IMG/VR virus record: IMGVR_UViG_3300013093_000022
Location: 62,514 to 126,513 of that record
Reading direction: 5' to 3' (one strand)
Source of the DNA: a virus
DNA length: 64,000 nt
Shown piece by piece: positions 5,413 through 62,953 of the stretch (positions within the stretch are counted from its first letter, which is position 1; each line of letters starts with the position of its first letter). Below the pieces are notes generated by a model. It saw nothing but the letters and a program-made list of their open reading frames with translations. It was not told the origin of the DNA and did not search any database. Both the position numbers and the translations under genes were made by a program.

Positions 5413-5601
5413 TCAGGCGGCGGGCTTGTTCGGGACCAGCCAGGTGGCGACCACGGTCAGCACGCCCAGCAGGGTCGACACCAGGGGCTGGTCGGGCAGG
5501 AATGGAATCTGGTTGTAGGCGGTCAACAGGGTTACCGCGACGCCGACCGCAGCGACGGCCGCCTTGCGTGCCGTGGCGACCCAATCCAAGAAGTTCGTCA
5601 T
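5413..5601 (-). CDS. small 2-TM membrane protein, holin-like
   Basis: 62 aa, two hydrophobic helices, ARKA start and WLVPNKP end typical of small actinophage holins. Confidence 0.65.
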   Translation of the reverse strand: MTNFLDWVATARKAAVAAVGVAVTLLTAYNQIPFLPDQPLVSTLLGVLTVVATWLVPNKPAA

Positions 5602-5623
5602 CTCATTCGTCCCTTTTTTGTGG

Positions 5624-6094: not shown

Positions 6095-6112
6095 ACTCTG
6101 TCCCCTACCCTA

Positions 6113-7723
6113 CTAGTCGCTCTGGAGCGTGTTTGACGCGCCGCCGAAGTCGTTGACCGCCGAGCTCGACGGGCCAGCGGCCGAACTCATCAAGCCGCTC
6201 TGCGTGTTCTGGGTGGTCGTGAAGTCCGACGCATTCGGAGACGCCCCGGTTGAGGTTACGGTCCCGGTGCTCAGGTCGATCCCGAAGGTCAACACGATGT
6301 AGTTCAACGGCATCGAGGGCTTCCAGTTGTACGAGATTTCCAGCACGTCGGGGTTGGTGATCAGTTGGCGTACGGTCAGGGAGTTATAGCCCGCGATCAG
6401 GCCGTTCACGAGCAGCGACTGGAGGCCGGCCTCGGCGGCGGCCTTCACATTGATCATCGTGTAGTCGTAGATCGGCTGGCCGATGAGGTTCGAGTTCTGC
6501 AGGTAGGCCCGCAGCGTGTACACCATCGAGTCCTGCTGGCCGACGATGTTCCACTCCCGGTGGAAGAGGTCGGCGTTGTTGGTGGTCACCCCGTGGCGGA
6601 CCCACATCCGGCCCCCGTTCGGGGGTGCCATCTCGATGACCATCAGCCCGTTCTGCGACTCGAAGCTCTTCTGGCTGTCGTTCACGCTGTCGTTGATCCC
6701 GGCGAAACCGGTGATCGCCTTGTGGGTCAGGGGTTGGGCGGCGCTCATGCTGACCGCCATACCGGCCAGGGCGCACGCGATGTACTGTCCCCCCAGGTTG
6801 ATGGTCTGGCTCAGCTCCGGAGAGTAGTACGAGAAGCTGGTCGGCGAGACGAGTGCGATCCGCTCGTCGTACAGGTCGGAGGCGTACTGGATCCGCTGCG
6901 TGCTCGACACCGTGTTCCCGGCCGTGCCGTCCATGCCGAGGATCGCCCGCCGCTCGAAACGGCTCGCCGACTGCTGGTCGACGTGCTCCTGGACCGCCTG
7001 GTTCAGGGGGCCCAGGTACGATCCGCTGCACGGCACCACGACCGACACCAGGGCCTGGTCGTTGAGGAGCTGGAGGGCGTTGTAGTAGTCGCCGTAGTTG
7101 GGGGCGCTCGGGTTGGCCGGATTCACCGCGACCGTCATCACCTGGCTGGCACCGTTCAAGAAGGCGAACTTCGCGCCCAAGGTCAGCTCCGACTGGACGA
7201 CGAAGCCGTTCGGGTTGGTGGTCGTCGGGACCGACGCGAACGGGGCACCGTACATGGTGACCACGTCGTTGTAGGTGTAGAAGACCTGCGGCTGGTAGTA
7301 GCTGGCGTCGGTGTAGGTGTACGAGATCTGGACGACCTGGCCGACGTTGATGTGCCCCGAGATGACGCGGGAGATCGCGTACGCCGAGGCGGCGGTGCCG
7401 CTCGCGGTTCCGTTGACCGACACGACCGTGTAGTCGGTGTTCAGGGTGTACACCTGGCCGGTGCTGGGGTTGGACACCACGATCGTGGCCTGGTCGATGC
7501 CCAACTGGGCCAGGGTGGCGTTGATCGCCGGGACCGAGGTGCTGGTGTCGGGGTTGATGACGATGCTCTGCACGAACTTGTTCGACCCGATCGACAGGCC
7601 GACCAAGGCGACGGCCGTGGGGATCGCGTTGTTGATCGCCAGGACGGTCGTCTCAGTGGGGTTGGTGTAGACCCCGGGCGGCAGGTACCTGGAGAAGTCG
7701 ACAGCCTGCGACGGAGTGCTCAT
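6113..7723 (-). CDS. tail sheath protein
   Basis: 536 aa; N-terminal YLPPGVY and C-terminal PSMPLNYIVLTF sheath signatures. Confidence 0.92.
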   Translation of the reverse strand: MSTPSQAVDFSRYLPPGVYTNPTETTVLAINNAIPTAVALVGLSIGSNKFVQSIVINPDTSTSVPAINATLAQLGIDQATIVVSNPSTGQVYTLNTDYTVVSVNGTASGTAASAYAISRVISGHINVGQVVQISYTYTDASYYQPQVFYTYNDVVTMYGAPFASVPTTTNPNGFVVQSELTLGAKFAFLNGASQVMTVAVNPANPSAPNYGDYYNALQLLNDQALVSVVVPCSGSYLGPLNQAVQEHVDQQSASRFERRAILGMDGTAGNTVSSTQRIQYASDLYDERIALVSPTSFSYYSPELSQTINLGGQYIACALAGMAVSMSAAQPLTHKAITGFAGINDSVNDSQKSFESQNGLMVIEMAPPNGGRMWVRHGVTTNNADLFHREWNIVGQQDSMVYTLRAYLQNSNLIGQPIYDYTMINVKAAAEAGLQSLLVNGLIAGYNSLTVRQLITNPDVLEISYNWKPSMPLNYIVLTFGIDLSTGTVTSTGASPNASDFTTTQNTQSGLMSSAAGPSSSAVNDFGGASNTLQSD

Positions 7724-7755
7724 CGGCAGAAACCCCTAACGGTCAGTAAATGTCT

Positions 7756-7792
7756 TCACTCTTTAGAGGGGCAGACCGGTGCCGGTTCACAT
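7756..7792 (-). promoter_or_regulatory. putative phage late promoter ATGTGA-N22-AAAGAGTGA
   Basis: Bipartite motif ending about 32 nt upstream of the sheath ATG. Confidence 0.6.
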
Positions 7793-8716
7793 CACCGGGT
7801 AGTCGACGTTCACCCCGTTCGTTTGCCCAGTCATGTCAAAGGGCGCGTACCCTGCGGGTATGACCGGGGAGTTCCCCAGCCACGCCTGGGGGGTGTAATC
7901 CTGCCCGGTCTCGGAGACCGTGACCCCCGACCGGATCTCGGCCAGGGTGTACAGGCCGTCGTTGTTGTACGAGAGGTTGAACTGGCCGACCATGTCGACG
8001 CTCCACGAGTCCTGGTAGGTGAGCAGGTCGTCGGAGAAGGGGGTGCCTTGGCTGGCCTGCTGGCCGCCGGGCAGGAGGGTGTCCAACTGCAGGGTCATCG
8101 CCACGTACGGGTTCTGGTCGAGGGCGGTGATCAGGCTCCGGTACTGCTGGGTGTCGGCCTGGGGCCTGGTCAGCAGGAGCTGCGGGGTCCGGGCGAAGGC
8201 CAGGACCGAGATCAGCGAGTCGGACAGCCGGTCCCGGTCGAGGCTCTTGAGGGCCAGGATCGTCATCGTGATCCGGCCTTGGAAGGTCCAGTCCTGGATG
8301 AACGACCACTCCCCGGTCTCGGGGTTCTTGACCTGGACCTCGTGGCCCAGGCCCGACCGGTTGATCTTGGTGACCGAGAACTCGACGAACACCGACGGGT
8401 ACTCGACCTGCTTGAGCGGGTAGTCGAGGGCGATCTGGACCTTCTGGGTCTTGTCGAACGACATCGAGCCTTGGAGGGCGTCGCGCAGCGCCTGGACGGT
8501 GGCCGTCTTGACCGACTGGATCAGGCCCCCGTCGGAGCGGGGCAGGGGAGGGATCTGGACCGACCCGCCGGGGGGGAAGTCGTAGTCGGCCATGAACACC
8601 GACGGCCCGAACTCGGGGTGGTCGGGGCCGAAGGTCTCGGGGAGCTCGACCGGGAACGCATCCGAGTTGGACACCGGTGCCCCGGGCTCGCCGGGCGGCG
8701 TCAGGGGCCCGGTCAC
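7787..8716 (-). CDS. probable tail terminator / neck protein
   Basis: 309 aa, directly upstream of the sheath; DYPLKQVEYPSVFVEF motif. Confidence 0.6.
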   Translation of the reverse strand: MTGPLTPPGEPGAPVSNSDAFPVELPETFGPDHPEFGPSVFMADYDFPPGGSVQIPPLPRSDGGLIQSVKTATVQALRDALQGSMSFDKTQKVQIALDYPLKQVEYPSVFVEFSVTKINRSGLGHEVQVKNPETGEWSFIQDWTFQGRITMTILALKSLDRDRLSDSLISVLAFARTPQLLLTRPQADTQQYRSLITALDQNPYVAMTLQLDTLLPGGQQASQGTPFSDDLLTYQDSWSVDMVGQFNLSYNNDGLYTLAEIRSGVTVSETGQDYTPQAWLGNSPVIPAGYAPFDMTGQTNGVNVDYPVM

Positions 8717-44171: not shown

Positions 44172-47100
44172 TCAGAAGTTCCGACTCGGCCGCGTCCCCG
44201 TGATCGACTCGTAGTCCTCCAGGAGGCGCTCCAAGAGTTTACGGGACTCGGGGGCACCGCCGCCAACGATCTCCGGCCAGTCGGCCACGATCTCGGCCTC
44301 GTGGCCCTGGGCGTGCAGCAGCTCGTAGAAGCCCGGGTCGTGGACGAGCCTCTCCACCGACACCGGGGCGGCGGCACGCCGGTGGATCGCCTGCTCCACC
44401 CTCGACTGGTCGGCCAGGTACGACCTGCGGTACGACGACGGGCCAGACTTGAAGTTGCGGAGCTTGTTGGCCAGCTTCGCGATGTCGCGGGGCGAGGCCC
44501 CGCCCCTGCCCGGCAGGTGGACCGGCGGCAGCCGCCGGGCACCCTCCTTCGGCTGGCGGGCTGGCAACTCGCCGCTGCCCCGCCACTCGTCCGACTCCTC
44601 GGGGCGCTGCCGGTTCTTCGGCACGATCACCTCCGCCGAACCGCCCGGTGCGGACACCTCTCCGCCCGGCGGGAAAGCCGACGGGCCCGCCGCCCTCGGC
44701 CCGTGCATCGTCGCCGTCACCTGCTGCTGACCGGCGGCCGGTGGGGCGGCCTGCTGCTGGTCGGCCGACTGCTGCTGGGCGTCGCCCGCTAAGGGCTGCA
44801 TCGTCGTCCCCGGCAACAAGCCCATCATCCCCGCCGGAGACGCCTGAGCGATCTGCTGATCCATCATCTTCGTCTGGTCCTCAAGCTGCTCGGTCTGAGC
44901 CAAACCCTGACGCAACTGCAGGGTCGCCATCAGGTGCTGGGTCAACTCGGGCGGGTAGGCGTAGTCCTGCTCGTCGCACATCTGCTGCAGGACGTGCATC
45001 GCCTCGGCCTGGGCTAGGCCCTTGTCGATCGTCTCCTGGGCCTGACGCTCCAACTCCTGCTCAAACTCGAACGGGATGTTGATCGCCAGGGTCTTGTCCG
45101 AGATCGGGACGCCCAACTGCTTCAACTGGGACACGAAGTTCCGCTCGGTCGCCTCGTCGCGCAGGTTCAGGGTGTTGTGCGACACCAGGCCAGCCGTAAC
45201 ATGGGTGTGGGTGCTGGTAATTCCCAGGGTAACGATATCGCCGCCCTCGGGGAGGTGAGTCACCGACAGGACCTGGTCCCACTCGACCGGACGCGGGGCC
45301 TTCCTCCCCCGTGTGGATGGTCGGGCCATGTCATCCAGCGCGGCGATCTTGGTGCCGATCATCGGTGTCAGGGTGTCGCGCAGCATCTGGAAGTAGTGGT
45401 TGTTGCTGACTGTCAGGTGGTTCACCGACTGCATGCCGGGGCCCTTTTGAGACTTGTACCGGTAGGCGTAGGAGCGGACTTGGGCGCGAATGCCCAGCGA
45501 CTCGAAAAGCACCTGGCAGTCGTCCAGCAGGGCACGGTTGACTGAACCGATCTTCAGTCCAGAACGACGACAGGCGTAGCCGTCGGCGTCAAAATATCCG
45601 GACAGGAACGCGGCGCGACCCTTGGCCCCTGCCGCCCAGACCATCGGCGGAACACGTTTGGTGTGGCCGTTCTCGCCCCACATGCCCTGCTCGCGGAGCA
45701 GGGTGTGTAGCGGGTTCCGCAGCACATTTCCCTTCCAAGGTGCAGGCCGGGAGAACGCCCGGTACCAGACCTTGTCGGTGCGGGCATCGGCCTTTCGGCG
45801 AGCAGTAAGACCCATCCGCTCGGCCTGCTCGCAGACGAATGCATCCACCTCGGGGTCGCTGACCGACAAAGACACATGAGTGGTGGAATAATTTCCATCA
45901 CCGACCAGCAACCCCAGAAAGCGCAGCATGTCTATGTCGTCGTCGGAATCGACGTGTGCCGTCAACTGACCGGCGGACGTGCGGATCAGGCTGTCAGCGG
46001 TAAGATTTTCGGCCGACACCCACCCCCGGCTGGTCCAGAACGGGTGGTCGGCGGTGCAGCGCACCGTGCGCCCAGTGGCAGTGGCCACCTCAACCAGGTG
46101 GTCGCGGTGCTCGATGCCGGTGTGTAGCGCGGTATCAATAACGTAGCCGGTGCCGTCCCAAGCGATGACCTCATCGCCGGTCTGGATGTCCTCAACATTG
46201 CGCTGTCCGGTAGGCGTGAGGACCTGCGTGCCAGGAACGACACAGGCGAACTTCACCTCGGGGATCAGCAGCTTCGGTACCCGGACCGTGTACTGCTCGC
46301 CCGTCTCCTCGTCCTCCTCGACCACCGTCTCGTAGATCGGGACCCGCGTCCCGCCCTTGAGGTCGTAGTCGTAGAACTCCTGGGCCTCCGACACGATCTC
46401 CATCCTCTTGCGGAGGTGGCGGACGACCTTGTTCTGGGCCGATTTCATCAGTTGCTCGCACACCTCGCGGTTGATCGCCGTCCCGGCGTAGGTGTCGCCC
46501 GAGCCGCCCATGATCAGGCCCTGCCCGATCCCCCACGACTGCATGATCTGGGCGTCGACCCGGTCGTAGTCGGTGTCGAAACGGGGTACCGACTCGCGGC
46601 CGAACACGCTCGTCACGTTCAGCCCGAAGTTGTGGCACAGCAGCTTGAAGTCGGCCGCCAGCGCCGACTGGATGTCGTCCCGCAGGTCCTCCAACTCGGC
46701 CTGGTCGGGGATCCACGGCTCGCCGTCGCCCATGTTCTCGATGCCCAGCGTCGCCAGGATCATCGGCGCGTACAGGCGATCGCAGTTGTGAACGGCGATC
46801 GGAGAGCAATACGAGTTGTCCTCTTTAACTTCGAGGTTGTACACCGTCTCTGTGACCTGATGGTGCCTGACGGACCGGACCTCCACCCAGTACCCGCCGC
46901 GATCGTTTCTGGCCGCACGGCGGGGCGTCTTGACCGCTGTTACGGACCCCCCTGTCCAGCCCCGTTCGGCGTCCCGTTTACCCGAAAACACCGAGGTGAT
47001 CATTCCGGCTCGGCGCATCAGCCACGCCGCAGATTCCTGCAGGGTTCGGTGCTTGGCCACACCAAGGTCACGGACATGGTTGCGGCAGCCATCGCCGTCA

Positions 47101-48872
47101 AGCCACCCCTCTACAAGGTGGTGTGTTTGTTCGGGGGTGAGGGTGAAGGCCCACGACGGAAAGCGTTTAGTCTCGCCGACGCCACACATTTCCCGGAAGA
47201 AAGGGCCCAGCACGGTGCTGTTCAGTTCCACGTTGATCGACTTGATGCGAGACCCATCCGAACGAAATCCTGTGGCTTTGACGATCGCGTCAAGTCCGAA
47301 AACATCCTTGATAACTTTGGCGGCCCGGGCAGCCTTATCAGATTCACCCTCGCCGACCACAATCCGAACCGATTTGCTGTTGGCGCTTCCATCTGCGACG
47401 TGAAGGCCGATCAGCCACAGCAGGTCGTCGGTGACCTTAAACTCGTCACCGCAGGACCGGACTGCTCTGTTTCTTAGGGCCGACAAGATTTTCTCGTCCA
47501 GGTGCTCACCCAAAAAGAGCGAAACCTTTTCCAGACCGGGGGAATCGGGGTGGAGAACCTGATCGTACTTCCGAACATCGGCGGCCCTCACAAAGCCTTC
47601 AGAAAAATTGGAATGGCTGTGCATGTTGTATCGGGCCGGGACGTTTACAGGCCGCCGGACATAGACCGGGTGCTCACCCGTCAACGTCATCGGCCGGTCG
47701 TACCACCAGTTCAGAGTGACGCCCGGTTCGTCGGCCTCGCGGATCATCGTCCGGATAACCTTCCGGTACCTTCCCCTGTGGGTCAGTACGGCGTCACCGG
47801 CCTTGACGTTCTGGATCTCAACAACGCCATTGGAGGTCAGAACGGGCTGGCCGTAGACCAGACACACGGCATCTTGTGCCGCGTTGAGGCTTTCCTCCAG
47901 CATCAGGGTCCGGAACGACCGCAGCAGGTGGGGGGTGCCCCGTAGGTCCCACCAGGCGGCCTTGTTGACCATGCGGCTGACCAGGGCGTCGGAGATGTCC
48001 AGCCCGTCGTTCTGGGCGGCGGCTGAGATGATCTCCGGGTAGTTCTTCGTGAGTTGCTGGTACTCCCAGGTCCGCTCGTACTTCTCGGACGGCGACTCGC
48101 CCGCCAGGGCCATCCCGCCCGGGCCGGTACGCAGCGACTCGACCAGGTCCTTCACCAGGAGTTGGACCCTCTCCTGCTCCACGAACAGCGACTTCGACAC
48201 CCGGACCATGTCGGGGTTCAGGATCTCCTCCGACGACCAGATGCCCAGGTCTTCGTTGAAGTGGGCCAGGGCCGTCACCTCGCCGACCATGAAGTACTCG
48301 CGCAGCAGGCCGTCGGGCAGGAACTCCTCATAGTTCAGGTCGTTCATGAACATCTGGGTGTAGAACTTCTCGATCTCCGGGTCCTTGCACACGAACTCCA
48401 GGCCCATGACCGGGAACTTCGAGTAGATGTCGATTAGCAGCGGGACTAGGGGGTGGGTGGCGAAAAACAGACGACACCACCTTCTGAGCTCGGTCAACTC
48501 GTCGGGGTCGTGGACGTTGAACGGGACGCCCTTGTCCATGAGGCTGCCCAGGGGCTGGCGGACCTTCGGCAGCACCATCTGGGTGTTGGCGGCGGTGCGG
48601 GTCATAGCCCCGCCCGAACCTGCCCGCCGGAACCTGTCCTGGCGCATCGCGGCCATCGCGGCCCGGTTCTGGACGTCGCTGACCGTGCCACGGCTCTGCA
48701 AGTCGGACGCCACCTTGCGGGCCTCCAGGCGGGCCATGACGGGGTTGTTGGGCATGGGGAAGCCGGAGGCCTTGAGGCGGCGCATCTCGGCGTCGCCGTT
48801 GCCCACGTAGAGGCCGGAGGCGGTCACCTGCCGGGCCGAGTGGCGCTGGTCATTGATCGGGAAGTCGGCCAC
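44172..48872 (-). CDS. portal protein precursor with two inteins (spliced ~849 aa)
   Basis: Helical extein (LIDIYSKFP...EEILNPDMV...RGTPHLLRSFRTL) located between terminase and protease; two intein blocks. Confidence 0.8.
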   Translation of the reverse strand: MADFPINDQRHSARQVTASGLYVGNGDAEMRRLKASGFPMPNNPVMARLEARKVASDLQSRGTVSDVQNRAAMAAMRQDRFRRAGSGGAMTRTAANTQMVLPKVRQPLGSLMDKGVPFNVHDPDELTELRRWCRLFFATHPLVPLLIDIYSKFPVMGLEFVCKDPEIEKFYTQMFMNDLNYEEFLPDGLLREYFMVGEVTALAHFNEDLGIWSSEEILNPDMVRVSKSLFVEQERVQLLVKDLVESLRTGPGGMALAGESPSEKYERTWEYQQLTKNYPEIISAAAQNDGLDISDALVSRMVNKAAWWDLRGTPHLLRSFRTLMLEESLNAAQDAVCLVYGQPVLTSNGVVEIQNVKAGDAVLTHRGRYRKVIRTMIREADEPGVTLNWWYDRPMTLTGEHPVYVRRPVNVPARYNMHSHSNFSEGFVRAADVRKYDQVLHPDSPGLEKVSLFLGEHLDEKILSALRNRAVRSCGDEFKVTDDLLWLIGLHVADGSANSKSVRIVVGEGESDKAARAAKVIKDVFGLDAIVKATGFRSDGSRIKSINVELNSTVLGPFFREMCGVGETKRFPSWAFTLTPEQTHHLVEGWLDGDGCRNHVRDLGVAKHRTLQESAAWLMRRAGMITSVFSGKRDAERGWTGGSVTAVKTPRRAARNDRGGYWVEVRSVRHHQVTETVYNLEVKEDNSYCSPIAVHNCDRLYAPMILATLGIENMGDGEPWIPDQAELEDLRDDIQSALAADFKLLCHNFGLNVTSVFGRESVPRFDTDYDRVDAQIMQSWGIGQGLIMGGSGDTYAGTAINREVCEQLMKSAQNKVVRHLRKRMEIVSEAQEFYDYDLKGGTRVPIYETVVEEDEETGEQYTVRVPKLLIPEVKFACVVPGTQVLTPTGQRNVEDIQTGDEVIAWDGTGYVIDTALHTGIEHRDHLVEVATATGRTVRCTADHPFWTSRGWVSAENLTADSLIRTSAGQLTAHVDSDDDIDMLRFLGLLVGDGNYSTTHVSLSVSDPEVDAFVCEQAERMGLTARRKADARTDKVWYRAFSRPAPWKGNVLRNPLHTLLREQGMWGENGHTKRVPPMVWAAGAKGRAAFLSGYFDADGYACRRSGLKIGSVNRALLDDCQVLFESLGIRAQVRSYAYRYKSQKGPGMQSVNHLTVSNNHYFQMLRDTLTPMIGTKIAALDDMARPSTRGRKAPRPVEWDQVLSVTHLPEGGDIVTLGITSTHTHVTAGLVSHNTLNLRDEATERNFVSQLKQLGVPISDKTLAINIPFEFEQELERQAQETIDKGLAQAEAMHVLQQMCDEQDYAYPPELTQHLMATLQLRQGLAQTEQLEDQTKMMDQQIAQASPAGMMGLLPGTTMQPLAGDAQQQSADQQQAAPPAAGQQQVTATMHGPRAAGPSAFPPGGEVSAPGGSAEVIVPKNRQRPEESDEWRGSGELPARQPKEGARRLPPVHLPGRGGASPRDIAKLANKLRNFKSGPSSYRRSYLADQSRVEQAIHRRAAAPVSVERLVHDPGFYELLHAQGHEAEIVADWPEIVGGGAPESRKLLERLLEDYESITGTRPSRNF
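45174..46244 (-). mobile_element. intein 2 in portal with LAGLIDADG endonuclease (357 aa)
   Basis: KFA|CVVPGTQV...TADHPF...FLGLLVGDG...FLSGYFDADG...VSHN|T. Confidence 0.93.
46785..47864 (-). mobile_element. intein 1 in portal with LAGLIDADG endonuclease (360 aa)
   Basis: DAV|CLVYGQPV...TGEHPV...LIGLHVADG...LVEGWLDGDG...VYNLEV...AVHN|C. Confidence 0.93.
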
Positions 48873-49259
48873 CTATCCCTCGACCCTCTGCATGCAGACC
48901 TCCGAGTACCAGACCTCGTCGGGTGCCTCCGGGTAGGCCTTCTCGTCCAGCGCCACCAGGAACATCGGGACGACTGGGCTCGCCAAATCCTCGGGGTTGA
49001 ACGAAACCCTCACCACGTGGCCGACGCCGTCGTAGACCTGGCCCCCGGTCTTGCACGACACCTTGTCGCCCTCCTTGTACGGGACGGTCAGGGCCAGGAA
49101 GGCCAGCAGCGCCGCCTCGCGGCTCTCGGGCATCAGCGACGCGCAGTCCCGGCAGTAGTCGCGGTCGGCACCGTCGACGACCGCGATGGCCCGCATCTTC
49201 TTACACCCCCAGCACAGGGATGTCCTATCCCCGGGTGTATCGCTGGGTTCTGTGGTCAC
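48873..49259 (-). CDS. hypothetical protein (CxxC...CxxC plus SH3-like part)
   Basis: 128 aa abutting the portal start; start uncertain. Confidence 0.6.
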   Translation of the reverse strand: MTTEPSDTPGDRTSLCWGCKKMRAIAVVDGADRDYCRDCASLMPESREAALLAFLALTVPYKEGDKVSCKTGGQVYDGVGHVVRVSFNPEDLASPVVPMFLVALDEKAYPEAPDEVWYSEVCMQRVEG

Positions 49260-51165
49260 GGCTGTGCCAATCGGGGGAGGTCTTTCCCTCGCTCACACCT
49301 TTGGACCGGGTGTCGGTCTTGGGGAGGTGGTCACTGGGGAACGGGTCGTCGTCATCGTAGTCGTCGCCGTTCGCACGCCGCAAACGCCGAGAGCCTTTAA
49401 TGCGGGGGTCGTCGGGTCCGGGGCTGTCGTCGGGATCCCAATTCAAAGGGGTGCATGTCTCATCCTTGATGTGCAACTCCGGCGGCGTCCAGAAGTGTTT
49501 GACGCACCCGTGGACCTTGTTGAAGTAGTTCTGAAGTGTCGGATCCACCGGGTCATCGTCCGCCCCGTCCAAGCGGTTGGTGATGTGGGTCCACATAACA
49601 TTGCTCAGCATGGAGCCGGGAAATGAGGGGTCCGACCGGCGGCGCTCGTGCTCACGCGCCAACTGGCCATCCTTAAGCTCGACGACTTGGTCCATGAGGT
49701 CTTGGAGCTCAACGTCGTCATCCGTGCCGTACATGTCACCAGCGCCGGGCGGCAGGCCGGGACCATCATAAGGCTCGGGTTGCCAGTCCCCGTCCTCCTT
49801 CGCACGCCGCAAACGTGTGCGACGGTTCGCGACGATGACATTGTCTCGGACCGGGATCTCGCGGGCGATGAACTTCTCGGCCGCCGCCTGGTGACGGTCG
49901 CCGCCGGTGCCGATCACGTACGTGTTCCAGATCTTGCCGCACTTGCAATGGTGGTAGTCGGGGACCTGTACAGGCTCGCCGCACGCACACTCAAAACGGC
50001 GGGGCTTGTTGGAGATGTAGCCGTTGAGGTGGTTGTCCCACTCCCAACCGGCGACCCTGTGCCGCTTGGGTGACACGGACGGTCCCCAGCCCATCCAGGC
50101 CCGCTTACGGCGGCCCAGGTGCTTGATCTGGTCCTGGAAGATGCGGGCGTGGTCCTCCTCGTCGGAGATCACCTCCCGCATCGCGGCCGCAGCGTCGGGG
50201 TCGCCCTCCCGCATCGCGTCGTCGGCGTAGTCGTCGTACTCGCCGATCGTCTTGATCTCGTCGCCCTCGGCCTGCATCAGGTCGTTGCGGAGGTCGGCGC
50301 GACGCCGCCCACCCTCCTTCGGCGGAATCGGGGCGAACGAGTCGCCCGGGTGCGGGTACAGCCCCAAGGCGTAGCCGTTGTAGGGCTCCGCGTGGACCCC
50401 TATGGACCGGAGTTGGTCCTTCAGCGTGTCGTCCGCTGCGGCGTAGTCGGTCCAGCCCGGCCGCCCCTCAAACAGGATGTGAGGGCCTGGGCCGCTATCG
50501 CTCGGGACCGTCTCCCCCGTGAACGGGTGCTGGTAGGTGGGGAGCCAGTCTGGGTGGAGCATCGGCCCAGCCCCCGACTCGTAGGCCTTCCGGCCGGACG
50601 GCACGTCGTCCCGCTCGCCGTGCTCCTCGTCCCAGCCCATCCAGTCGCGAACCATGTTCAGGGCCCGGCGCTGGGTCAGGTCATCAAGCCGGGGCTTGCC
50701 CTTGGCGGTCCGGCGTCGGGACAGCATGTACCGGCCCAGGGCCTCGTTCGCCGAGCGGTGGGCGTCGCGGTCGGTGATCCTCCCGGCCGCATGGTGGTCG
50801 GCGATCTCGGAGATGATCTGCTTGAACACCGCGTCCGGGTGGTGGCCGGCACCGACACGGGCACCGAACTCGTCGCGCACCGTCGACGGCGACTTCGACC
50901 ACGGCTCGTCGGGGCTGGAGGACCGCTTCCGGCGGGCGGTCTGGGTCGGCAGCTTCGGCAACTGGGGCAGCTTGGTCGTGGCCGGGGTCAGGGCCGCCCC
51001 GCCGACGCCTTGGCTCTTCAGCTTCTGGACCCCCTGCGGGCCGACCCTCTTCCGGTTCACGAAGTCCTGGGCCGCGCCCGGGTCGCCCCGGTTCAGGCCC
51101 TGCTGCTCTGCCTTCTGTTGGGCCCTCTGCCAGTCGGCCATCAGGTCGGCCCGGCGGGGCCTCAC
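49225..51165 (-). CDS. modular head-associated protein with half-ferritin and zinc modules
   Basis: 646 aa; EGDEIKTIGEY...DEEDH; CACG...CKCG; possibly also made as a -1 frameshift fusion. Confidence 0.78.
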   Translation of the reverse strand: MRPRRADLMADWQRAQQKAEQQGLNRGDPGAAQDFVNRKRVGPQGVQKLKSQGVGGAALTPATTKLPQLPKLPTQTARRKRSSSPDEPWSKSPSTVRDEFGARVGAGHHPDAVFKQIISEIADHHAAGRITDRDAHRSANEALGRYMLSRRRTAKGKPRLDDLTQRRALNMVRDWMGWDEEHGERDDVPSGRKAYESGAGPMLHPDWLPTYQHPFTGETVPSDSGPGPHILFEGRPGWTDYAAADDTLKDQLRSIGVHAEPYNGYALGLYPHPGDSFAPIPPKEGGRRRADLRNDLMQAEGDEIKTIGEYDDYADDAMREGDPDAAAAMREVISDEEDHARIFQDQIKHLGRRKRAWMGWGPSVSPKRHRVAGWEWDNHLNGYISNKPRRFECACGEPVQVPDYHHCKCGKIWNTYVIGTGGDRHQAAAEKFIAREIPVRDNVIVANRRTRLRRAKEDGDWQPEPYDGPGLPPGAGDMYGTDDDVELQDLMDQVVELKDGQLAREHERRRSDPSFPGSMLSNVMWTHITNRLDGADDDPVDPTLQNYFNKVHGCVKHFWTPPELHIKDETCTPLNWDPDDSPGPDDPRIKGSRRLRRANGDDYDDDDPFPSDHLPKTDTRSKGVSEGKTSPDWHSRDHRTQRYTRG

Positions 51166-54104
51166 CCTAAAGGGGGGCGGCCCCTGGGGGGTTGGCGACC
51201 TTGGGACGACTTCTTCCTGCCCGGGGCGAACTTGCCGTACTGCTCATCAAACGGGTTGTCGCCCGGCTCGTGGAGATAGCCCTTCGTCAGGTTCAGCCCG
51301 TAGTTGTAGTGGCCGCCGCACTGGCTTCCCTCACTGTCGCAGTGCTCACAGCCGGGCTCCGGCTCCCCCCGCTCGAGCCGGTTCATCAGGGCGACCTCGA
51401 AAAGCTCCGGTGTGAGCTCCCCTGAGCCGACCATCTTCTTGCGGACATCGCGGAGCCGCTTCGGGAACTCGTTCATGTCAAGTATTTGCCGACCCAGGTA
51501 GTTCGCGTCGTGCGGGTGCATGCCCAGGTCCTTCAGCTTCTGGGCGTACTCAGGGGACGGCTCCCTTCCAAGCATCCCCGGGAAGTACATGGGGTAGCTG
51601 GCCGACCCGTCTCCGTAGGTGAGGCCGCTGGCGGTGCGAATCCCGGTGGAGCCGCCGCGAACGGCGGCCTCACCTAAAGGGCGGCGGCCCCTAGAGGACT
51701 TCCTCTTGCGGCGCTCTGACTTGTCCGCGCAGTCCTCGCAGTGGAAGTCCAAGTCGCCGTGACCGCCGGTCTCAGTGACGTACATCTGATCCTTGGGCAT
51801 CTCGACCCCGCAGGAGGGGCAGGAGGCGTGGTCGCCGTCGTCCCAGTTCCCGGCCTGACGGCGACGGGACGCCCCTCTCCCCTTGCAGTCGTGCGACTTG
51901 ATCATCCGCTCGGCATCGGGGCCGGTCATTGCCGCGCCGCAGTCCGGGCATTCGGCCCGGCCCGCCTGACGGCGGCGTGCGGACTTGCGGTGGGTGTCGC
52001 ACTTCTCACACGAGCCCTCGGCGCAGGGCTTGGTGCCCGGAACCCTCTTGTAGCCCTCCCAGCACTCGCAGTTCTTGGCCTGTCGCAGGCGGCGGGCCTG
52101 CATCTGCTGCGGGGCCTGCTGCCCGGCCAGACCGGCCGCAGCCGGGTCGACCTGCGGCATCCCACCGCCCTGCGGGGCACCGCCCGGCTGCTGGGGCATG
52201 ACGTTCACCGTACCCGCCGGTGGGGACACGTTCAGCGGGTTCGTCAACTGCTCGGCCTGCTGGATCGTCACCAAGGCCTGCTGCAGCGGGGCGATCGTCT
52301 CCTGGAACTCCTGGGCCTTCTCGTTCAGGACCTTCGTCAGGGCCTCGTCGGCCTGCTGCAGGTAGTTCCGGTCGGCCAAGAGGCGCAACGCGGCGTGGTG
52401 CCTGTTCGGGCGCGAGGTGTCATACCCCTCGGGAACCGGCCAGCGGGCGTCCGGGTCGCCCGGCTCGCCGCGCTCCAGTTGACCCTCGGGCCTCCCGCTG
52501 TAGGGGTTGCGGGCGTCCCCAAAGGCCCAGTCGTCGAGGTCCATGACGTTGTGCTCAGCGGCCGTGCGGCCGCCGATCATCCCGGCGATGATCTGGAACT
52601 CGCGGCTCGCGGTCGGCATCATCGGCTGCGCCGGGTTCATCGCCATGTCGGGGGTCGTCGACGGGGCCGCCGGTGTGGTGCCGGTGCCGGGCCCGCCCTG
52701 CGGGGGCATCGCCGGGGGTCCCGACGGGGCAGCCATCGGGGCGTCGGCCCGCATCAACCGGGCGATCCGATAGAACTCCGGGTACATTCCCGCCCCCTTC
52801 ACGAAGTTGTGGTCGCCGTCGTCGTCGTGGCGCTCCACCTCGTACGGGCTGGACGACCGCGAGTCGGGGCCGACGAAGTCACGGTCAACTTTGCCCTCTG
52901 CGCCCTGGTCGACCCGGCCCTTGTACGAGTCGAAGTCGCCCTCGGGCTCCAGCCGGTCGTAGGTGTGGGGCTCGTAGGTCGAGTGGTTGTCCACCTCGGG
53001 GTGGTCGCGCTCCTCCTCGAACTCGGCGTAGTAGCGGCGGCCGCCCCTGGGCATGCCGGTTTGACCCAACCCGGGGACCGGGGCGGGGGGCGGCGCTGCC
53101 GGGTTCGGGGACGGGGTGGGGCCACCGGCGGGGGGAGCGGCTGCCGCCGGTGCCCCGAGCGGCTTGTACAGCTTGTCGCCCGGGTGGATCAGGTCGGGGT
53201 TCTTCCCGATGTCGGTGCCCGACGACATAGCCCCGGTGTTGGCCTTCTCCAGGTCGCCCAGGTCGGATCCCATGCCCTTGGCGATGTTGCTCAGCGTGTC
53301 GCCCGGCTTGACCGTGTACTCGCCGTCGCCGATGCTCCCCGGGGCGATGTCGCTCGCAGACCAGGAGGGGCCGCCGCTCCCGGAGACCCCGGAGAGTGGC
53401 TTCCCGAGGCCGCCACCGGCGGCAGGAGCCCTGCCGGGGCCGGCCGCCGGACCGACTGGGACGGTGTCGCCCGAGAGGACCCCCTTGTTGTAGGCGGCCG
53501 AGTTCTCCGCCGCCGCGTTCTCCGACAGGCCGGTGGGGCTCTTGGTCGGGACCGGGACGCCGTTGTTGCGGTACACGGTCACGGGGGCACCGGGACCGCT
53601 GCTCCCAGGAGGTGGTCCGTTGGGGTTGGCCTTTGGAGCCGACTTTGGAGCCGACTGAGGGTCATTTATCCCGCCGCTATTGAATCCGTTGGCGAAACTG
53701 GCACCGCCCGCGAATGCGCCGGGTGCATCTACCGTCGGCCTCGGCGCTCGCCCCTCATCCAAGCCACCACCATTGAATCCGTTGGAGAAACTGGGCTCTT
53801 CGTTTTGATCGTCGGCCGTCCGGCGGGTCGACGCCTCGCGCCACTCCCGCTCCAGGGTCTTCAGGACCTTCTTGTACACGCCCAGCCGGGCGTGCAGGTG
53901 GGGCTCGATGGTCTTGCAGATGTCGACGTAGGCCAGCTTCGCCCGGTCGTGGAAGGCGTCCCGGTCGTGGGCACCGAACAGCCACGGCCCGTGCTTCTCC
54001 CGGACGTCGTAGGTGGCGGCCGCCAACTTGTCCTGGGCGGCCTGCTTGCGGACCTTTTCCTCGTCGTCACCGAACGACGCGACATCGAAAACACCGACGG
54101 ACAT
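51162..54104 (-). CDS. modular head-associated protein with LysM domain
   Basis: Start revised to ATG 54104 (GAAAGG RBS); YTVKPGDTLSNIA...NPDLIHPGDKL LysM at ~53160-53321; several Cys modules. Confidence 0.8.
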   Translation of the reverse strand: MSVGVFDVASFGDDEEKVRKQAAQDKLAAATYDVREKHGPWLFGAHDRDAFHDRAKLAYVDICKTIEPHLHARLGVYKKVLKTLEREWREASTRRTADDQNEEPSFSNGFNGGGLDEGRAPRPTVDAPGAFAGGASFANGFNSGGINDPQSAPKSAPKANPNGPPPGSSGPGAPVTVYRNNGVPVPTKSPTGLSENAAAENSAAYNKGVLSGDTVPVGPAAGPGRAPAAGGGLGKPLSGVSGSGGPSWSASDIAPGSIGDGEYTVKPGDTLSNIAKGMGSDLGDLEKANTGAMSSGTDIGKNPDLIHPGDKLYKPLGAPAAAAPPAGGPTPSPNPAAPPPAPVPGLGQTGMPRGGRRYYAEFEEERDHPEVDNHSTYEPHTYDRLEPEGDFDSYKGRVDQGAEGKVDRDFVGPDSRSSSPYEVERHDDDGDHNFVKGAGMYPEFYRIARLMRADAPMAAPSGPPAMPPQGGPGTGTTPAAPSTTPDMAMNPAQPMMPTASREFQIIAGMIGGRTAAEHNVMDLDDWAFGDARNPYSGRPEGQLERGEPGDPDARWPVPEGYDTSRPNRHHAALRLLADRNYLQQADEALTKVLNEKAQEFQETIAPLQQALVTIQQAEQLTNPLNVSPPAGTVNVMPQQPGGAPQGGGMPQVDPAAAGLAGQQAPQQMQARRLRQAKNCECWEGYKRVPGTKPCAEGSCEKCDTHRKSARRRQAGRAECPDCGAAMTGPDAERMIKSHDCKGRGASRRRQAGNWDDGDHASCPSCGVEMPKDQMYVTETGGHGDLDFHCEDCADKSERRKRKSSRGRRPLGEAAVRGGSTGIRTASGLTYGDGSASYPMYFPGMLGREPSPEYAQKLKDLGMHPHDANYLGRQILDMNEFPKRLRDVRKKMVGSGELTPELFEVALMNRLERGEPEPGCEHCDSEGSQCGGHYNYGLNLTKGYLHEPGDNPFDEQYGKFAPGRKKSSQGRQPPRGRPPLG

Positions 54105-54530: not shown

Positions 54531-55700
54531 CTAGACAACGGTCAGATAGGACGGGGTCCCCGACTCCAACAGGTACACCAGGCCGCCCCGCCGCGACGTC
54601 GACCCGTGCTTGTCCCGGTACCAGTCGGAGCCGCAGTCGTAGGTCGAGGCGCTGATCGCGACCCGGTTCTCGTTCGACCGGACCTGCATCTCATGCCAGT
54701 GGCCGAACTGGAGCAACTGTGCCGCCCCGGGGGGCTGGTTGTTGATCGCCTGCTGGGCCCACCAGGTGAAGGCCTGGTTGCGCGACCACTGGTGGCCGTG
54801 GGTAACGCAGACGGCGGTGTTGCCGACCGGGACGGTCATCATCCCGCACCACTTGTCAGGGGTCCTCACCTCGACATGGCCGTACGACCCCTTGTTCATC
54901 CGCAGGGCGTCGGACACCTGGATCGCGCACTCGGTGGCCCACCCGTTGCCGGGGTACACGTTCTGCACCCTCGTGGCCTCGTCGTGGTTGCCGTTCACCA
55001 CGTCCAGGTAGACCCGGTCAACCAGCGGGGCGAACTCCTCGACCGTGTGCATCATCAGGCGACGGAAGATACGGACCTGCTCGGTGATCGGCTCCTGGGT
55101 CAGCCAGATGTTCTTGCTCGACTGGGACACCACGCCCTCGATGCAGTCGCCGGGCATCGAGATCTGAATCCCCTCAATACCCAGCCTCTTCAGGTTCTTG
55201 AAGTGCTGCTTCGCCAGGGACACCGAGTCGATGTAGCGTTCCACGATCTGCTCTGTCGACCCGTCCCTTGACCGCTTGCCGATCTGCAGGTCCGAGGCCT
55301 GGAACACGAACCAGTGCGGGCCCGACCCGGGGGCGGGTGACTTGCGGGACCTGTCGACGACCGCCTCGATGTCGACCGCCGACGACATGGCCGGGTTGAC
55401 GCACGCGAACTTGTAGGCGTGCAGCCACACCGTCTCGTACTCGCCGGTGTCCTTGTCGCGGGACCTCTGCTGCCAATGGGATTGTTTGAGGACCGAGCCC
55501 AGTTTGATTTTCTCCGGGTCCTCACCGGCCGACTCCAGGGCCTGCCGGAACATGGGGCTGAAGTCGGTGGGCGGGTCGCCCCGCAGGACCCCGGTCTCCC
55601 ACACCCCCGACGACCCGTCGAACTCGATCCTCGGTGAATACGAGGACTCCTGGGCCTCTGTCCGTGCCTTGGAGATGTCGTCGGCGGCGCTCACAATCAA
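54531..55700 (-). CDS. calcineurin-like metallophosphoesterase (MRE11-like)
   Basis: SDLQ, GDCIEG, GNHDE, HGH, GHWH motifs in the canonical order. Confidence 0.88.
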   Translation of the reverse strand: MIVSAADDISKARTEAQESSYSPRIEFDGSSGVWETGVLRGDPPTDFSPMFRQALESAGEDPEKIKLGSVLKQSHWQQRSRDKDTGEYETVWLHAYKFACVNPAMSSAVDIEAVVDRSRKSPAPGSGPHWFVFQASDLQIGKRSRDGSTEQIVERYIDSVSLAKQHFKNLKRLGIEGIQISMPGDCIEGVVSQSSKNIWLTQEPITEQVRIFRRLMMHTVEEFAPLVDRVYLDVVNGNHDEATRVQNVYPGNGWATECAIQVSDALRMNKGSYGHVEVRTPDKWCGMMTVPVGNTAVCVTHGHQWSRNQAFTWWAQQAINNQPPGAAQLLQFGHWHEMQVRSNENRVAISASTYDCGSDWYRDKHGSTSRRGGLVYLLESGTPSYLTVV

Positions 55701-59619: not shown

Positions 59620-59648
59620 ACAGTAGCCGCGACTCAAGAAGCTATCAA
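59620..59648 (-). promoter_or_regulatory. SigA-type promoter TTGATA-N17-TACTGT
   Basis: 5/6 match at -35, TAnnnT at -10, 17-nt spacer. Confidence 0.5.
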
Positions 59649-62600
59649 CCCCGCCTCTGAACGCCTTTCGGCGTCTTCGGTTCCCGGGTGTGGATGGAGT
59701 TCAGGCTGGACGGCTCGTACCGGCCCCGGCGGTGCCTCCCGTCGGTCATGGCACGCCTCTCTTGGATCACCTCAGACGCCGGACGCCACGTCTTGTCCTC
59801 CATGAACTTGTCCATCTCGCGGCCCGACTTCAGACCGGACACATTAGACGAGCCGTAGGCACCGGCGGTCAGCCTGTCCGACGACCACCGGTCGAGCGCG
59901 TCACGCAACAGGTCGACCGCCACCACCATGACCGCGTCGGCCAGGTCCTTCGTCACCACCGGGCCCGTGTCCTGCTTCACGACCCGGCCGTTCCTCTCCG
60001 ACAGGAACTTCAACTCCAACTCCAGCAGGCACGACTCGTTGTCCAGGTAGAAGCTGTCCGGGAAGCAGTGGATCCAGCCCAGGTTGAGCGCCGACTTGAA
60101 CTTCTCACACCGGACCTGGTTCTCCTTCTCGGTGAACGGCAACTCGACCACCCGGATGCCGGGCATGAACTTCTGCCGCAGCGATGCGATGAACGAGGCG
60201 CTGTTGTGAGAAACCACGCCGTTGGCGATGTAAGACTCAGGGCCGGGGACGGAGAGGTCGTAGCAGTCGGTCACAGAATCCTCAATGCGGGACACCCTCA
60301 CCCAGTACTCGTCCCCGTGTCGCTGATGTTTACTCCTAAGACCAACACCACGCCCCGAACTCCCCTGAACAACATTAACGGCTTGGACGAGTTCCTGCTG
60401 CTTCCGCGAGCAAGAAAACCCAACTTCGTCGGCGAAGTCAAGCAAGTCAAGACCGTACATCTTGATGCGCCATTGGTCTCGCACCTCACCCCTATAGCGA
60501 TAAGTGCCCGACCAGAGAGTGGAGAAAACTCCGATTGACAGCAGCAGTTGCTGTACCACCTCGGCGATGTCGTAGGAGGTTGTCGTAGCCTCAATCCAGA
60601 CCTCCCCCTCCCTACCAAAGCAGACGCCGCCATCACCCTCAAAGTATCCGCGCAAGAACGCCTTGACGACTTCGGCGGGGGACGTCCGAATAACCCAGGG
60701 AACCGCCTTCTCCGTTGCCCTGCCACTTAGGCCCAATTGGCGCAAGAATCGGGGAATCCGGCCACCCTTCCGCACCGTTCCCCAGTGATACTTCCCCATC
60801 CAGTCATCCACGGTTTTGGAGGTCCAGGTTCCCCCGAAACTCTTCTCCATCAGGGTTCGGTACCGCTCAACCAACTCGTCGTCACTGTTACCGAACCGAC
60901 AGTGAAGATCGGTGTAATCGCCCTCGGCCACCAGCAGACCGAGAGCCTCCCCCAATGCCTCGTCGCAGCCCGGGGACCACTCTCCTGTCCAGTTGGGCAG
61001 ATTCGTCAGATCAAACTCTTCACTGGGGAGCATCGTATTGCGCTTCAGGCAGAGCCAGTCGCCGACCTCAATGTTCCCGCCGACCTCGTAACCCCACGGC
61101 TCGTCGGCGTGCCAAGGCCTCGCCTTGGCTTTCCTGACCCACAACCTATGCTCGGGCGTGATCTCAATCGTGTTGCCCAGTTTGGTGGTGATCTTCCTAG
61201 TCGGAACGACACCTTTGTGAAACCCCTGCCTAATCACCGCAGTCTGGGTATGGGACTCCACGCCAAGGTTCAAATCCACGACTTTCCCGACAGGAACCTC
61301 GTCTCCGACGATCTCATCAACTCGAAGCAGGCCACGTGCCGTCGGCACAAGGGTTGATCCAGCGAGGCAGTTCCACTGGTCGAACGAAATCTTCTCGGTC
61401 GACATGAACCGGGACAGGATGTCGTCAATGTCGGAGTGGACCTGCACGTAGTCGATCGTCCGCTTGTGGGTCTCGGCGTCCTCGGGGAAGTCCATCGGCC
61501 GCCACACCTTCAGGAAGTCAAACACCACGTGGGGCCAGACCCGGCCGTGCTCGTCGGGCGGGGCGTCCTCCAAATGGGCGACCGCCAGCGAAAAGTTCGC
61601 GCCGGTGCGGCCCGGGTCGCAGTGGATCCGATACTTGCGGTCAAACGTGCCGTACGCCTGCGGGGCCAGCGGCTCGCGCCAGTCGGGGTCGCGGTACATG
61701 GCATCGACCTTGTCCGAGTCGAGGTACTGGTCGAGAACCTCGCCGAACTGACCCTGCTTCTCCACCCGGAACTTGTCGGGGTCGCGGAGCCTCTCCCGAA
61801 TTTGGCGCTCGTCGGTCAGGTCGGGCTCGGGCGACTTGTCGAATTTGTACCGAACGCCCAGGACGCGGCGCACGTCCCTCCAGTCGCGGTACAGGTCCCA
61901 CGACGAGCCCTGGAAGATCAGCCACGACGGGTCGCAGTCAAGTTCGGCCTGGCGGCCCACGTTCATCAGGTTCTGGCGGGCCTCGTCGGCCATGCCGGTC
62001 TCATCGCTGTAGCTGCTCATCAGGACCCGGCCCGACTGGTACAGGACGTAGAACTGGCCCGCCTTCGTCGCCGGGGACGACGGGATGTAGGTCAGAGAGT
62101 CGTTGCCGAACTGTCCCAGCGACGGCTGCCAGGCGTGGTAAATCTCGGTGTCGGACTTACTCGACCCGGTCTGGACGTGGAACGCGAACTCGTCGTACAG
62201 GTTGGCGAACGAGGTCTGGCCACGTCCCGACACCGAGTTCGTCGCCAGGGCCACCCCGACCAGAGAGGCGATCTGGTGGTCGATCGGGATCCTCGCGACC
62301 TTCATCTCCGAGATCCGGCGCAGGTCGGCCGGGGTTCGGATCCGCAGGATCGCGTCCTTCGACTCGGCGATCCACGGCGGCTGGCCGTCGGGCCGGAAGT
62401 ACTTGCACTGCTCGACCATCGTCCGGACGTCGGCGAACAGTTGGCGGGCCGCCTGGGTTTGGGAGGTGCCTCCGACGTTGAGGTACACATCCTTGCCACG
62501 GGCGACCCCGTACACGGCCTGCGGGTCGTCGAGCGAGTGGAGGTAGGCGATCTGCTCACAGGCCAGCAGACCCCCCATCGCCCCCTTCGAGGCGCGTCGG

Positions 62601-62953
62601 CCGAGGACCATCTGGATGTGGGGGAACCGGCGGTAGCCTCGCTGCTTCAGGTACTCGACCCGCTGCCAGATGTCGGGCTGGACCCCGAACGTCTCCCGGG
62701 CCAGGGTGAAGCCCTTGCGCCACTCGTTGATCACGTCGACGTCGTACTGGGTCATCTGCTCGGTCTCGAGGAAGATGAGCTTGAGCAGGGTCGCCTGCCT
62801 GGGGAAGATCGGGAATCCGCAGAAGCTGGGGTGGATCGCGAAGTCGACGATGCTGTCCCACGGTGCCCGCCGGTTCAGGCCGCCGACCACCATCTCGACG
62901 GCGTCGAACCCCTTGGCGGCGAGCCTCTCCTGCTCCCGGGGGTTGAACGCCAT
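59645..62953 (-). CDS. terL: terminase large subunit precursor with one intein (spliced ~713 aa)
   Basis: Walker A LGRRASKG, Walker B LYDEFAF, nuclease HCDPG, SFDQWN|S and KDLADAV motifs. Confidence 0.9.
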   Translation of the reverse strand: MAFNPREQERLAAKGFDAVEMVVGGLNRRAPWDSIVDFAIHPSFCGFPIFPRQATLLKLIFLETEQMTQYDVDVINEWRKGFTLARETFGVQPDIWQRVEYLKQRGYRRFPHIQMVLGRRASKGAMGGLLACEQIAYLHSLDDPQAVYGVARGKDVYLNVGGTSQTQAARQLFADVRTMVEQCKYFRPDGQPPWIAESKDAILRIRTPADLRRISEMKVARIPIDHQIASLVGVALATNSVSGRGQTSFANLYDEFAFHVQTGSSKSDTEIYHAWQPSLGQFGNDSLTYIPSSPATKAGQFYVLYQSGRVLMSSYSDETGMADEARQNLMNVGRQAELDCDPSWLIFQGSSWDLYRDWRDVRRVLGVRYKFDKSPEPDLTDERQIRERLRDPDKFRVEKQGQFGEVLDQYLDSDKVDAMYRDPDWREPLAPQAYGTFDRKYRIHCDPGRTGANFSLAVAHLEDAPPDEHGRVWPHVVFDFLKVWRPMDFPEDAETHKRTIDYVQVHSDIDDILSRFMSTEKISFDQWNCLAGSTLVPTARGLLRVDEIVGDEVPVGKVVDLNLGVESHTQTAVIRQGFHKGVVPTRKITTKLGNTIEITPEHRLWVRKAKARPWHADEPWGYEVGGNIEVGDWLCLKRNTMLPSEEFDLTNLPNWTGEWSPGCDEALGEALGLLVAEGDYTDLHCRFGNSDDELVERYRTLMEKSFGGTWTSKTVDDWMGKYHWGTVRKGGRIPRFLRQLGLSGRATEKAVPWVIRTSPAEVVKAFLRGYFEGDGGVCFGREGEVWIEATTTSYDIAEVVQQLLLSIGVFSTLWSGTYRYRGEVRDQWRIKMYGLDLLDFADEVGFSCSRKQQELVQAVNVVQGSSGRGVGLRSKHQRHGDEYWVRVSRIEDSVTDCYDLSVPGPESYIANGVVSHNSASFIASLRQKFMPGIRVVELPFTEKENQVRCEKFKSALNLGWIHCFPDSFYLDNESCLLELELKFLSERNGRVVKQDTGPVVTKDLADAVMVVAVDLLRDALDRWSSDRLTAGAYGSSNVSGLKSGREMDKFMEDKTWRPASEVIQERRAMTDGRHRRGRYEPSSLNSIHTREPKTPKGVQRRG
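60203..61369 (-). mobile_element. intein in terminase with LAGLIDADG endonuclease (389 aa)
   Basis: QWN|CLAGSTLV...TPEHRL...ALGLLVAEG...FLRGYFEGDG...CYDLSV...VSHN|S. Confidence 0.94.

Follow-up and report, generated by a model that had tools for sequence, protein, structure and literature searches.

Two copies of a candidate -1 frameshift cassette at module borders of a predicted virion-protein gene in a lake-water phage

Programmed -1 frameshifting in phages is exemplified by the tail assembly chaperones of the G/GT (lambda) type, which are encoded between the tail tube and tape measure genes and in which slippage on an X XXY YYZ heptamer located a few codons ahead of the stop codon yields a minor, C-terminally extended form. 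The same direction of shift occurs near the gene end of T7 10A/10B and of the major head protein gene of Lactobacillus phage A2, where a longer minor form results and is incorporated into the virion. The dnaX (tau/gamma) and copA/CopA(Z) genes of Escherichia coli instead use truncating -1 frameshifts, in which the heptamer is followed by an immediate -1 stop and the shifted ribosome makes the shorter protein. In orfA/orfB of the IS3 family, two open reading frames (ORFs) overlap with the second in the -1 frame, the heptamer lies within the overlap, and a structure follows it (available portions of PMC4066793 and PMC13313380). The available portion of a survey of SEA-PHAGES genomes attributes 2397 of 2476 joined frameshift genes to tail chaperones (PMC10885494). 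The subject of the present analysis is a pair of ORFs, ORF1 and ORF2 (Table 1), in a 64,000-nucleotide (nt) stretch of virus DNA, here called the window, which was taken from a metagenome assembly and is the second half of the 126.5-kb IMG/VR record IMGVR_UViG_3300013093_000022 (record G+C 65.5%). ORF1 contains two copies of a short cassette that are probably programmed -1 frameshift sites, which would give nested forms of 811, 980 and 1626 amino acids (aa) from a single start codon.

In comparing this locus to the described systems, the downstream cassette follows the extending logic of the chaperones and of the T7 and A2 genes, and the upstream cassette, along with 12 further sites in relatives, follows the truncating logic of dnaX and CopA(Z). 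Unlike the G/GT pair, the gene belongs to another family, lies upstream of a portal gene, and carries several cassettes including a truncating variant, at module borders that vary among relatives. The T7 and A2 genes have one site and one extension in a known capsid protein, whereas the protein considered here is modular and is not the major capsid protein; dnaX and copA hold single sites in cellular genes, whereas truncating and extending cassettes are paired here and interchange between relatives. The arrangement also resembles that of orfA/orfB; the IS3 product, however, is a mobile-element enzyme, and a domain search found no transposase-like domain here. Homologous modules at the same site, before a small gene and a portal gene, are present in the cultured Mycobacterium phages Myrna (gp87), Catera (gp87) and Phrappuccino (gp44), Gordonia phage Pupper (gp86) and Rhodococcus phage E3 (gp68-gp70); the cassette is of the truncating type in Myrna, Catera and Pupper, and of the extending type between gp68 and gp69 in E3. 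These proteins are annotated as hypothetical or in some cases as methyltransferases, and E3 gp70 as a structural protein that is joined and flagged pseudo. Full-text literature searches returned no published description of a frameshift in the phrog_2922 family to which these proteins belong, the main text of the Myrna capsid paper does not mention gp87 (PMC7150772), and none of the five phage records annotates a frameshift at the cassettes.

ORF1 and ORF2 are best explained as one gene for a large, modular, predicted virion-associated protein, because they match successive positions of the phrog_2922 profile (length 1237; positions 578-650 for ORF1, E 3e-23, and 926-1014 for ORF2, E 1.5e-33) and because both parts form a single ORF in eight relatives (L005, L013, L016, L017, Myrna gp87, Catera gp87, Pupper gp86 and Phrappuccino gp44). 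Wherever annotation exists, these single ORFs adjoin the small gene and then the portal gene, and the window gene is likewise placed upstream of both. The relatives comprise 20 uncultured loci (L004-L023), one locus from a genome collection (L027) and the five cultured phage records. In tblastn searches 15 of the 20 uncultured loci carry both halves, and L008, L011, L015, L020 and L023 show the ORF2-like part only; the relatives align from residue 12 of the ORF1 translation when it is numbered from the alternative TTG start. As E3 gp68 corresponds to the N-terminal part of phrog_2922 and gp70 to the C-terminal part, a cultured phage also belongs to the split set. The protein carries a LysM domain and several Cys/His clusters. 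An earlier description of this DNA, made from its letters without database searches (the sequence-only reading), had called it a head protein, a wording supported only by gene position and by the 'structural protein' label of the E3 homologue gp70.

The cassette was recognized as a direct repeat on the minus strand, of which the second copy has one additional G and two substitutions. In a blastn-short self-comparison of the 4880-nt two-ORF region it is the top-scoring off-diagonal direct repeat (28 columns, 92.9% identity, 1 gap, score 21), and none of 300 codon shuffles reaches this score (mean of the best scores 14.2, maximum 18). The second-ranked repeat (53794-53772 and 53701-53679; 23 nt, 95.7%, score 20) also scores above the best shuffle, and the third (49815-49799 and 49386-49370; 17 nt exact, score 17) falls below it. 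Both cassette copies place CCCTTTA in X XXY YYZ phase with ORF1. The -1 frame of the upstream copy closes at once (CCC TTT AGG TGA), and frame 0 continues there for another 172 codons. At the downstream copy, the additional G brings the TGA into frame 0 (CCT TTA GGG TGA), the heptamer lying three codons before this stop and inside an 82-nt overlap of the two frames, and it is the -1 frame that stays open, for 649 codons, as ORF2. The sequence-only reading had described this repeat, the phase of both heptamers and the reciprocal stops, and the three product lengths it derived follow from the coordinates; on all of these points it was accurate. CCCTTTA occurs five times on both strands of the record, and these two are the only copies in phase with a long sense ORF, so that a frameshift role was rejected for the other three (genome position 8931; window positions 11085 and 27605). 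A simple one-base insertion or deletion that keeps the downstream frame was likewise rejected as the relation between the copies, as the frame arithmetic does not fit; the copies therefore have the cassette in common and not the module behind it.

The gene would thus be decoded with two copies of a conserved -1 frameshift cassette standing at module borders, each made of a stretch encoding a short basic peptide, a heptamer in X XXY YYZ phase, a stop codon within the next few bases and, in most cases, a GC-rich hairpin. At the downstream cassette, ribosomes that do not shift would end the 980-aa product, and those that shift would read into ORF2 to give the 1626-aa product; this site is very likely a working, conserved -1 frameshift that joins the two ORFs. 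At the upstream cassette one G fewer moves the TGA to the -1 frame, such that shifted ribosomes would end the 811-aa product and unshifted ribosomes would continue, and on balance this site, too, seems to yield a real truncated product. Both classes are thereby predicted to give the same product pair, a short form ending behind the cassette and a long form reading on, and to differ in whether the short or the long form depends on the shift. That ribosomes shift at these sites, at what rate they do so, and that the nested products matter to the virion is what we infer from this arrangement; the sites may also set module stoichiometry, as the sequence-only reading had proposed.

Comparison across the family carries most of this argument. 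Twelve frame transitions were counted among the uncultured loci, the window, L027 and E3, and all are -1 with no +1 transition. An in-phase XXX(A/T)3N heptamer lies 3-8 codons before the frame-0 stop at 9 of the 12, in nine lineages including the window (Table 1), with a binomial probability of about 1e-15 or lower as computed for 9 of 11. Six metagenome lineages were checked for start codons, and in each the -1 frame lacks one at the junction, for 36-240 nt past the frame-0 stop; in the L004 group, L012 and the L019 group, homology to ORF2 sets in ahead of the first -1 start. Because the homology begins before any such codon, the downstream parts in these three lineages, as read from sequence, cannot arise by independent initiation at a standard start codon. 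The sequence-only reading had named two outcomes that would count against it, namely a heptamer lacking at the equivalent junction of homologues and an independent start of ORF2; the heptamer proved to be conserved, and the search for starts favours the frameshift. Three arrangements fall off the cassette pattern: in L018 (485-494) a TTG/GTG/ATG cluster sits at the overlap, the first junction of L021 (4949-5129) is a 181-nt overlap without a heptamer, and the two parts in L014 (5130-5854) are in the same frame, 723 nt apart. E3 gp70 (L024 4914-8432) is annotated as a join of two pieces and as pseudo, and frame 3 there is open from 4545 to 8432, through gp70 into gp71. L027 is a 149.6-kb contig from a bin of an uncultured gammaproteobacterial metagenome-assembled genome; it carries the gene set of this phage and looks like a phage contig within the bin, and its phrog_2922 halves are joined by C CCA AAA.

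At the nucleotide level, the residues encoded by the heptamer vary between PL, PF, PK, GK and GF, and the XXXYYYZ pattern is constant. The codons involved are uncommon in the family: TTA makes up 5 of 749 Leu codons, with four of the five in cassettes, which agrees with the rare TTA usage pointed out from the letters alone, and CCT, TTT and AAA account for 11% of Pro, 8% of Phe and 7% of Lys codons, respectively. Eight lineages share a 13-base core that takes in the first six bases of the heptamer and is in phase in every case. Since the residues vary and the slippery pattern with its rare codons stays, selection appears to act on the nucleotide pattern itself. The two classes also interchange at orthologous borders. 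Border J1, before the first module of ORF2, is extending in the window and L007, truncating in L009 and without a cassette in L005. In a second cassette type, which has an A-rich heptamer, the spacing of heptamer and stop differs by one base between L007 and L005, as it does between the two copies of the window, so that the stop falls in frame 0 in L007 and in the -1 frame in L005.

Truncating sites recur as well, which bears out the arrangement read in the upstream copy. Among the family ORFs, a scan by reading phase gave 24 in-phase XXX(A/T)3N heptamers vs. six in each of the other phases, after six junction heptamers that had been counted twice were removed from the other-phase counts. Next to the extending sites, 13 in-phase heptamers of the family leave frame 0 open and close the -1 frame (class II). 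These are the upstream copy of the window and sites in L009 (5889), L010 (5802), L017, L016, L013, Myrna, Catera, Pupper, L005, L020, L007 (6150) and L019 (5728), with the -1 stops at 3, 2, 2, 4, 9, 4, 4, 4, 2, 4, 4, 7 and 3 codons. The stop thus lies within four codons at 11 of the 13 sites, compared to 10.5% of 16118 family codon positions (background median 40 codons; P = 1e-9, or 7e-8 with related sites collapsed).

RNA structure lends support to the family sites as a set and to the upstream copy; that behind the downstream copy is no more than moderate. Measured against local windows of the same genes, the 50 nt that follow the heptamer show elevated stability across 20 family sites (mean z -1.04; t-test p 0.0017, Wilcoxon p 0.0037). 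For the upstream copy, a 75-nt segment starting at the heptamer has a folding energy of -40.3 kcal/mol (z -4.45, with 0 of 200 shuffles and 3.4% of local windows as stable), and an alternative local 7-bp hairpin with a UUCG loop can be seen by eye 6 nt after this heptamer. The downstream copy folds at -24.1 kcal/mol, with z -1.82 against local windows, of which 5.6% are as stable. A G-rich stretch is located 6 nt upstream of the upstream heptamer; Shine-Dalgarno-like stimulation by it was considered and set aside, as the spacing of about 6 nt is shorter than the roughly 10 nt of the dnaX stimulator.

Several observations weigh against the frameshift decoding. Its support is comparative for every family member, and 3 of the 12 transitions (L018, the first junction of L021, and E3 gp69 to gp70) are without a heptamer, the last having its own GAGGAG-N7-ATG start. 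The structure behind the downstream copy is not significant against shuffles (z -0.64) and is only moderate against local windows, the truncating-type sites of Myrna, Catera and Pupper have no notable structure (z +0.7 to +1.15) and may shift little, and the outer stem at the upstream copy begins inside the heptamer, nearer than the usual spacer of 5-9 nt. The peptide encoded by the cassette, (G/S)RRP(F/L), is conserved, and every Arg codon in the cassette is CGC, which makes up 50% of Arg codons, so that part of the nucleotide conservation could reflect a need for the peptide or recent exchange of cassettes. At the window junction, GTG 51165-51163 overlaps the frame-0 stop as GTGA, and E3 gp69 has the same GTGA; such an overlap could allow termination-reinitiation, making ORF2 as a separate protein. 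What is known of the heptamer points both ways: in favour of a shift, the available portion of PMC4066793 lists C_CC.U_UU.A, C_CC.U_UU.U and C_CC.A_AA.A as shift-prone and under-represented in E. coli genes; it gives H_HH.U_UU.Y and V_VV.A_AA.R among the most efficient ones, and C CCU UUA is not among the latter.

Part of this is taken up by an unlikely alternative in which only the downstream site works, and the upstream copy is an inert duplicate kept as a recombination joint or for its peptide, with near -1 stops limiting the cost of accidental slips. The abutting outer stem, the lack of downstream structure at the truncating-type sites of the cultured cluster C phages, and the conservation of the 13-base core and the CGC codons beyond the heptamer are all consistent with it, as is the movement of modules. 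A search with the inter-cassette module returned only three representatives, one of which was the window's own; in the other two, the modular proteins P0004 (727 aa, residues 187-305, 60% identity) and P0005 (848 aa, residues 196-313, 56% identity), the module occupies a different position, and the module order differs in L027. The modules therefore shuffle, and the cassettes may double as joints for this. P0004 and P0005 also contain cassette-like peptides (..GRLPFD.. and ..SRHPFE..), known at the protein level. The stop proximity at 11 of 13 sites is expected under a truncating function and under an inert copy alike and is therefore not decisive between them. What speaks against inertness is that a need for the peptide would not require the rare CCT with TTA or TTT, nor would it permit the range of residue pairs seen at the heptamer, and that the upstream copy has the more stable structure of the two sites in the window.

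Less probable still is that ORF1 and ORF2 are two ordinary adjacent genes, with ORF2 starting at GTG 51165 by translational coupling through the GTGA and the heptamers inert. The overlap of GTG and stop suits coupling, a GTGA or ATGA overlap always leads to a following gene in the -1 frame, the annotated start of E3 gp69 is a GTG of this kind, and another gene caller chose an ATG 24 nt further on. The GTG, however, is without a well-spaced Shine-Dalgarno sequence by eye, as the sequence-only reading had held; of the purine-rich stretches before it, an AGG abuts it directly and an AGGGG lies 15 nt upstream, compared to the GAGGAG-N7-ATG at the true internal start of E3 gp70. Two separate genes would also leave the single ORFs of the eight relatives, the six lineages without a start codon at the junction, three of them with homology ahead of the first start, and the rare-codon, in-phase heptamer at 9 of 12 junctions to be explained in some other way.

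That the gene is broken, either as a pseudogene or through an assembly or sequencing error in a homopolymer run, is very improbable. The sequence does come from a metagenome assembly, runs of C and G flank the heptamer, and E3 gp70 is flagged pseudo with a join. However, RNA-library contigs of three other lake-water samples, and the DNA contig X1 at a depth of 64.8, are identical to the window over their covered parts; among the RNA-library contigs, one (X4 record 6, 50966-51735) runs across both copies with no differences and no gaps, and two X3 contigs each cover one copy. Because contigs from other samples are identical, one of them across both copies, assembly error is excluded for practical purposes. 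The same -1 arrangement in eight further lineages from different samples, and reading frames open for 980 and 646 codons, also argue against a broken gene. The stretch 50700-52100 is present in lake-water RNA-library contigs from several studies, 19 of the 21 listed runs being RNA libraries; the phage thus recurs in lake water, with these contigs indicating presence only. A near-identity DNA search of a phage collection gave no match. RNA polymerase slippage, the other known route to a -1 product, is just as improbable as a broken gene, as no support for it was found, the runs are only 3+3 or 3+4 bases where known transcriptional slippage needs longer homopolymers, and the RNA-library contigs have no inserted or lost letters at either site, within the limit that contigs drop rare variants.

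A broader proposal is put forward tentatively, with doubt slightly outweighing belief: the cassette may be a portable recoding unit placed at the borders of a shuffling virion protein across actinophage-like viruses, acting as a tunable valve in which the extending or truncating form at each border sets the major nested product, so that a gene with several valves would produce, from a single mRNA, a graded set of isoforms nested at their C-terminal ends. If the valve proposal is true, a truncated gp87 would have gone unrecognised in the well-studied cluster C mycobacteriophages. The frameshift finding itself would place a second conserved recoding family beside the tail chaperones, and gene models would change for many metagenomic phages as well as for cultured ones, such as E3 and, in cluster C, the mycobacteriophages Myrna and Catera. 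The family would also offer a natural series for how frameshift sites arise, move and set product ratios, with one signal able to lengthen or shorten a protein and with the same junction holding, in some cases, the lengthening form in one phage and the shortening form in a related one. The finding is directly testable, as cultured relatives and hosts (Mycobacterium smegmatis, Rhodococcus, Gordonia) exist.

Table 1. Coordinates of the features in the window, and the heptamers at the extending junctions of the family with the first ATG/GTG/TTG of the -1 frame counted from the frame-0 stop.
Feature	Position	Strand	Remarks
ORF1	51162..54104	minus	980 aa from ATG 54104; alternative TTG 54134; LysM domain
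ORF2	49225..51165	minus	646 aa, -1 frame of ORF1; would join ORF1 in the 1626-aa product
Cassette copy 1, truncating (class II)	51666..51692	minus	basic codons, heptamer, -1 stop
Heptamer of copy 1	51675..51681	minus	C CCT TTA, in phase
-1 frame TGA of copy 1	51670..51672	minus	3 codons from first heptamer base; a shifted ribosome would end the 811-aa product
RNA structure behind copy 1	51616..51676	minus	13-bp outer stem starting inside the heptamer
Inter-cassette module	51165..51674	minus	170 aa, frame 0, with Cys/His cluster
Cassette copy 2, extending (class I)	51158..51185	minus	one more G between heptamer and TGA
Heptamer of copy 2	51168..51174	minus	C CCT TTA, in phase
Frame-0 TGA	51162..51164	minus	ends the 980-aa product
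Stem behind copy 2	51119..51164	minus	irregular, GC-rich, moderately stable
Large terminase	59645-62953	minus	intein splicing and LAGLIDADG domains (Pfam)
Endolysin-like gene		minus	between large terminase and exonuclease in list order
Exonuclease	54531-55700	minus	
Small conserved gene	48873-49259	minus	phrog_2858
Portal gene	44172-48872	minus	intein-like (Hint, LAGLIDADG) domain matches (Pfam)
Tail assembly chaperone pair	4235-5148	minus	canonical -1 frameshift; phrog_2792/2992 on both parts
Tape measure gene	1870-4218		follows the chaperone pair
Window junction			C CCT TTA
L004/L006/L007 junction			C CCA AAA; first -1 start after 204 nt
L009 junction			C CCT TTA; first -1 start after 48 nt
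L010 junction			C CCT TTC; first -1 start after 138 nt
L012/L011 junction			C CCT TTA; first -1 start after 144 nt (L012)
L019/L022 junction			C CCA AAA; first -1 start after 240 nt
L021 second junction			C CCA AAA; first -1 start after 36 nt (L021)
L027 junction			C CCA AAA
E3 gp68 to gp69 junction			C CCT TTC

The annotated genes around ORF1 and ORF2 are all on the minus strand. The window has a tail chaperone frameshift of its own, with the heptamer G GGA AAA at 4636-4630, five codons ahead of the stop of ORF 4618-5148, and a -1 extension of 134 codons that matches the C-terminal part of phrog_2992. The cassettes of ORF1 are 46 kb distant from it and ahead of the portal gene, and the sequence-only reading was thus right in placing them outside the tail chaperone locus.

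Within the protein, a weak ferritin/rubrerythrin-like stretch at window positions 50117-50335 (ORF2 residues ~277-350) has a Pfam E-value of 0.004, below the cutoff, and the PDB, searched with the ORF2 sequence, returned nothing beyond a weak match to bacterioferritin in this stretch (E 2.7e-4); an ESM Atlas search with the conserved ORF2 module gave no usable match. Short basic motifs of the form (S/T)RR(R/K)QA recur by eye at module borders of ORF1, ORF2 and their relatives, e.g., before a conserved W-G-W-G module.

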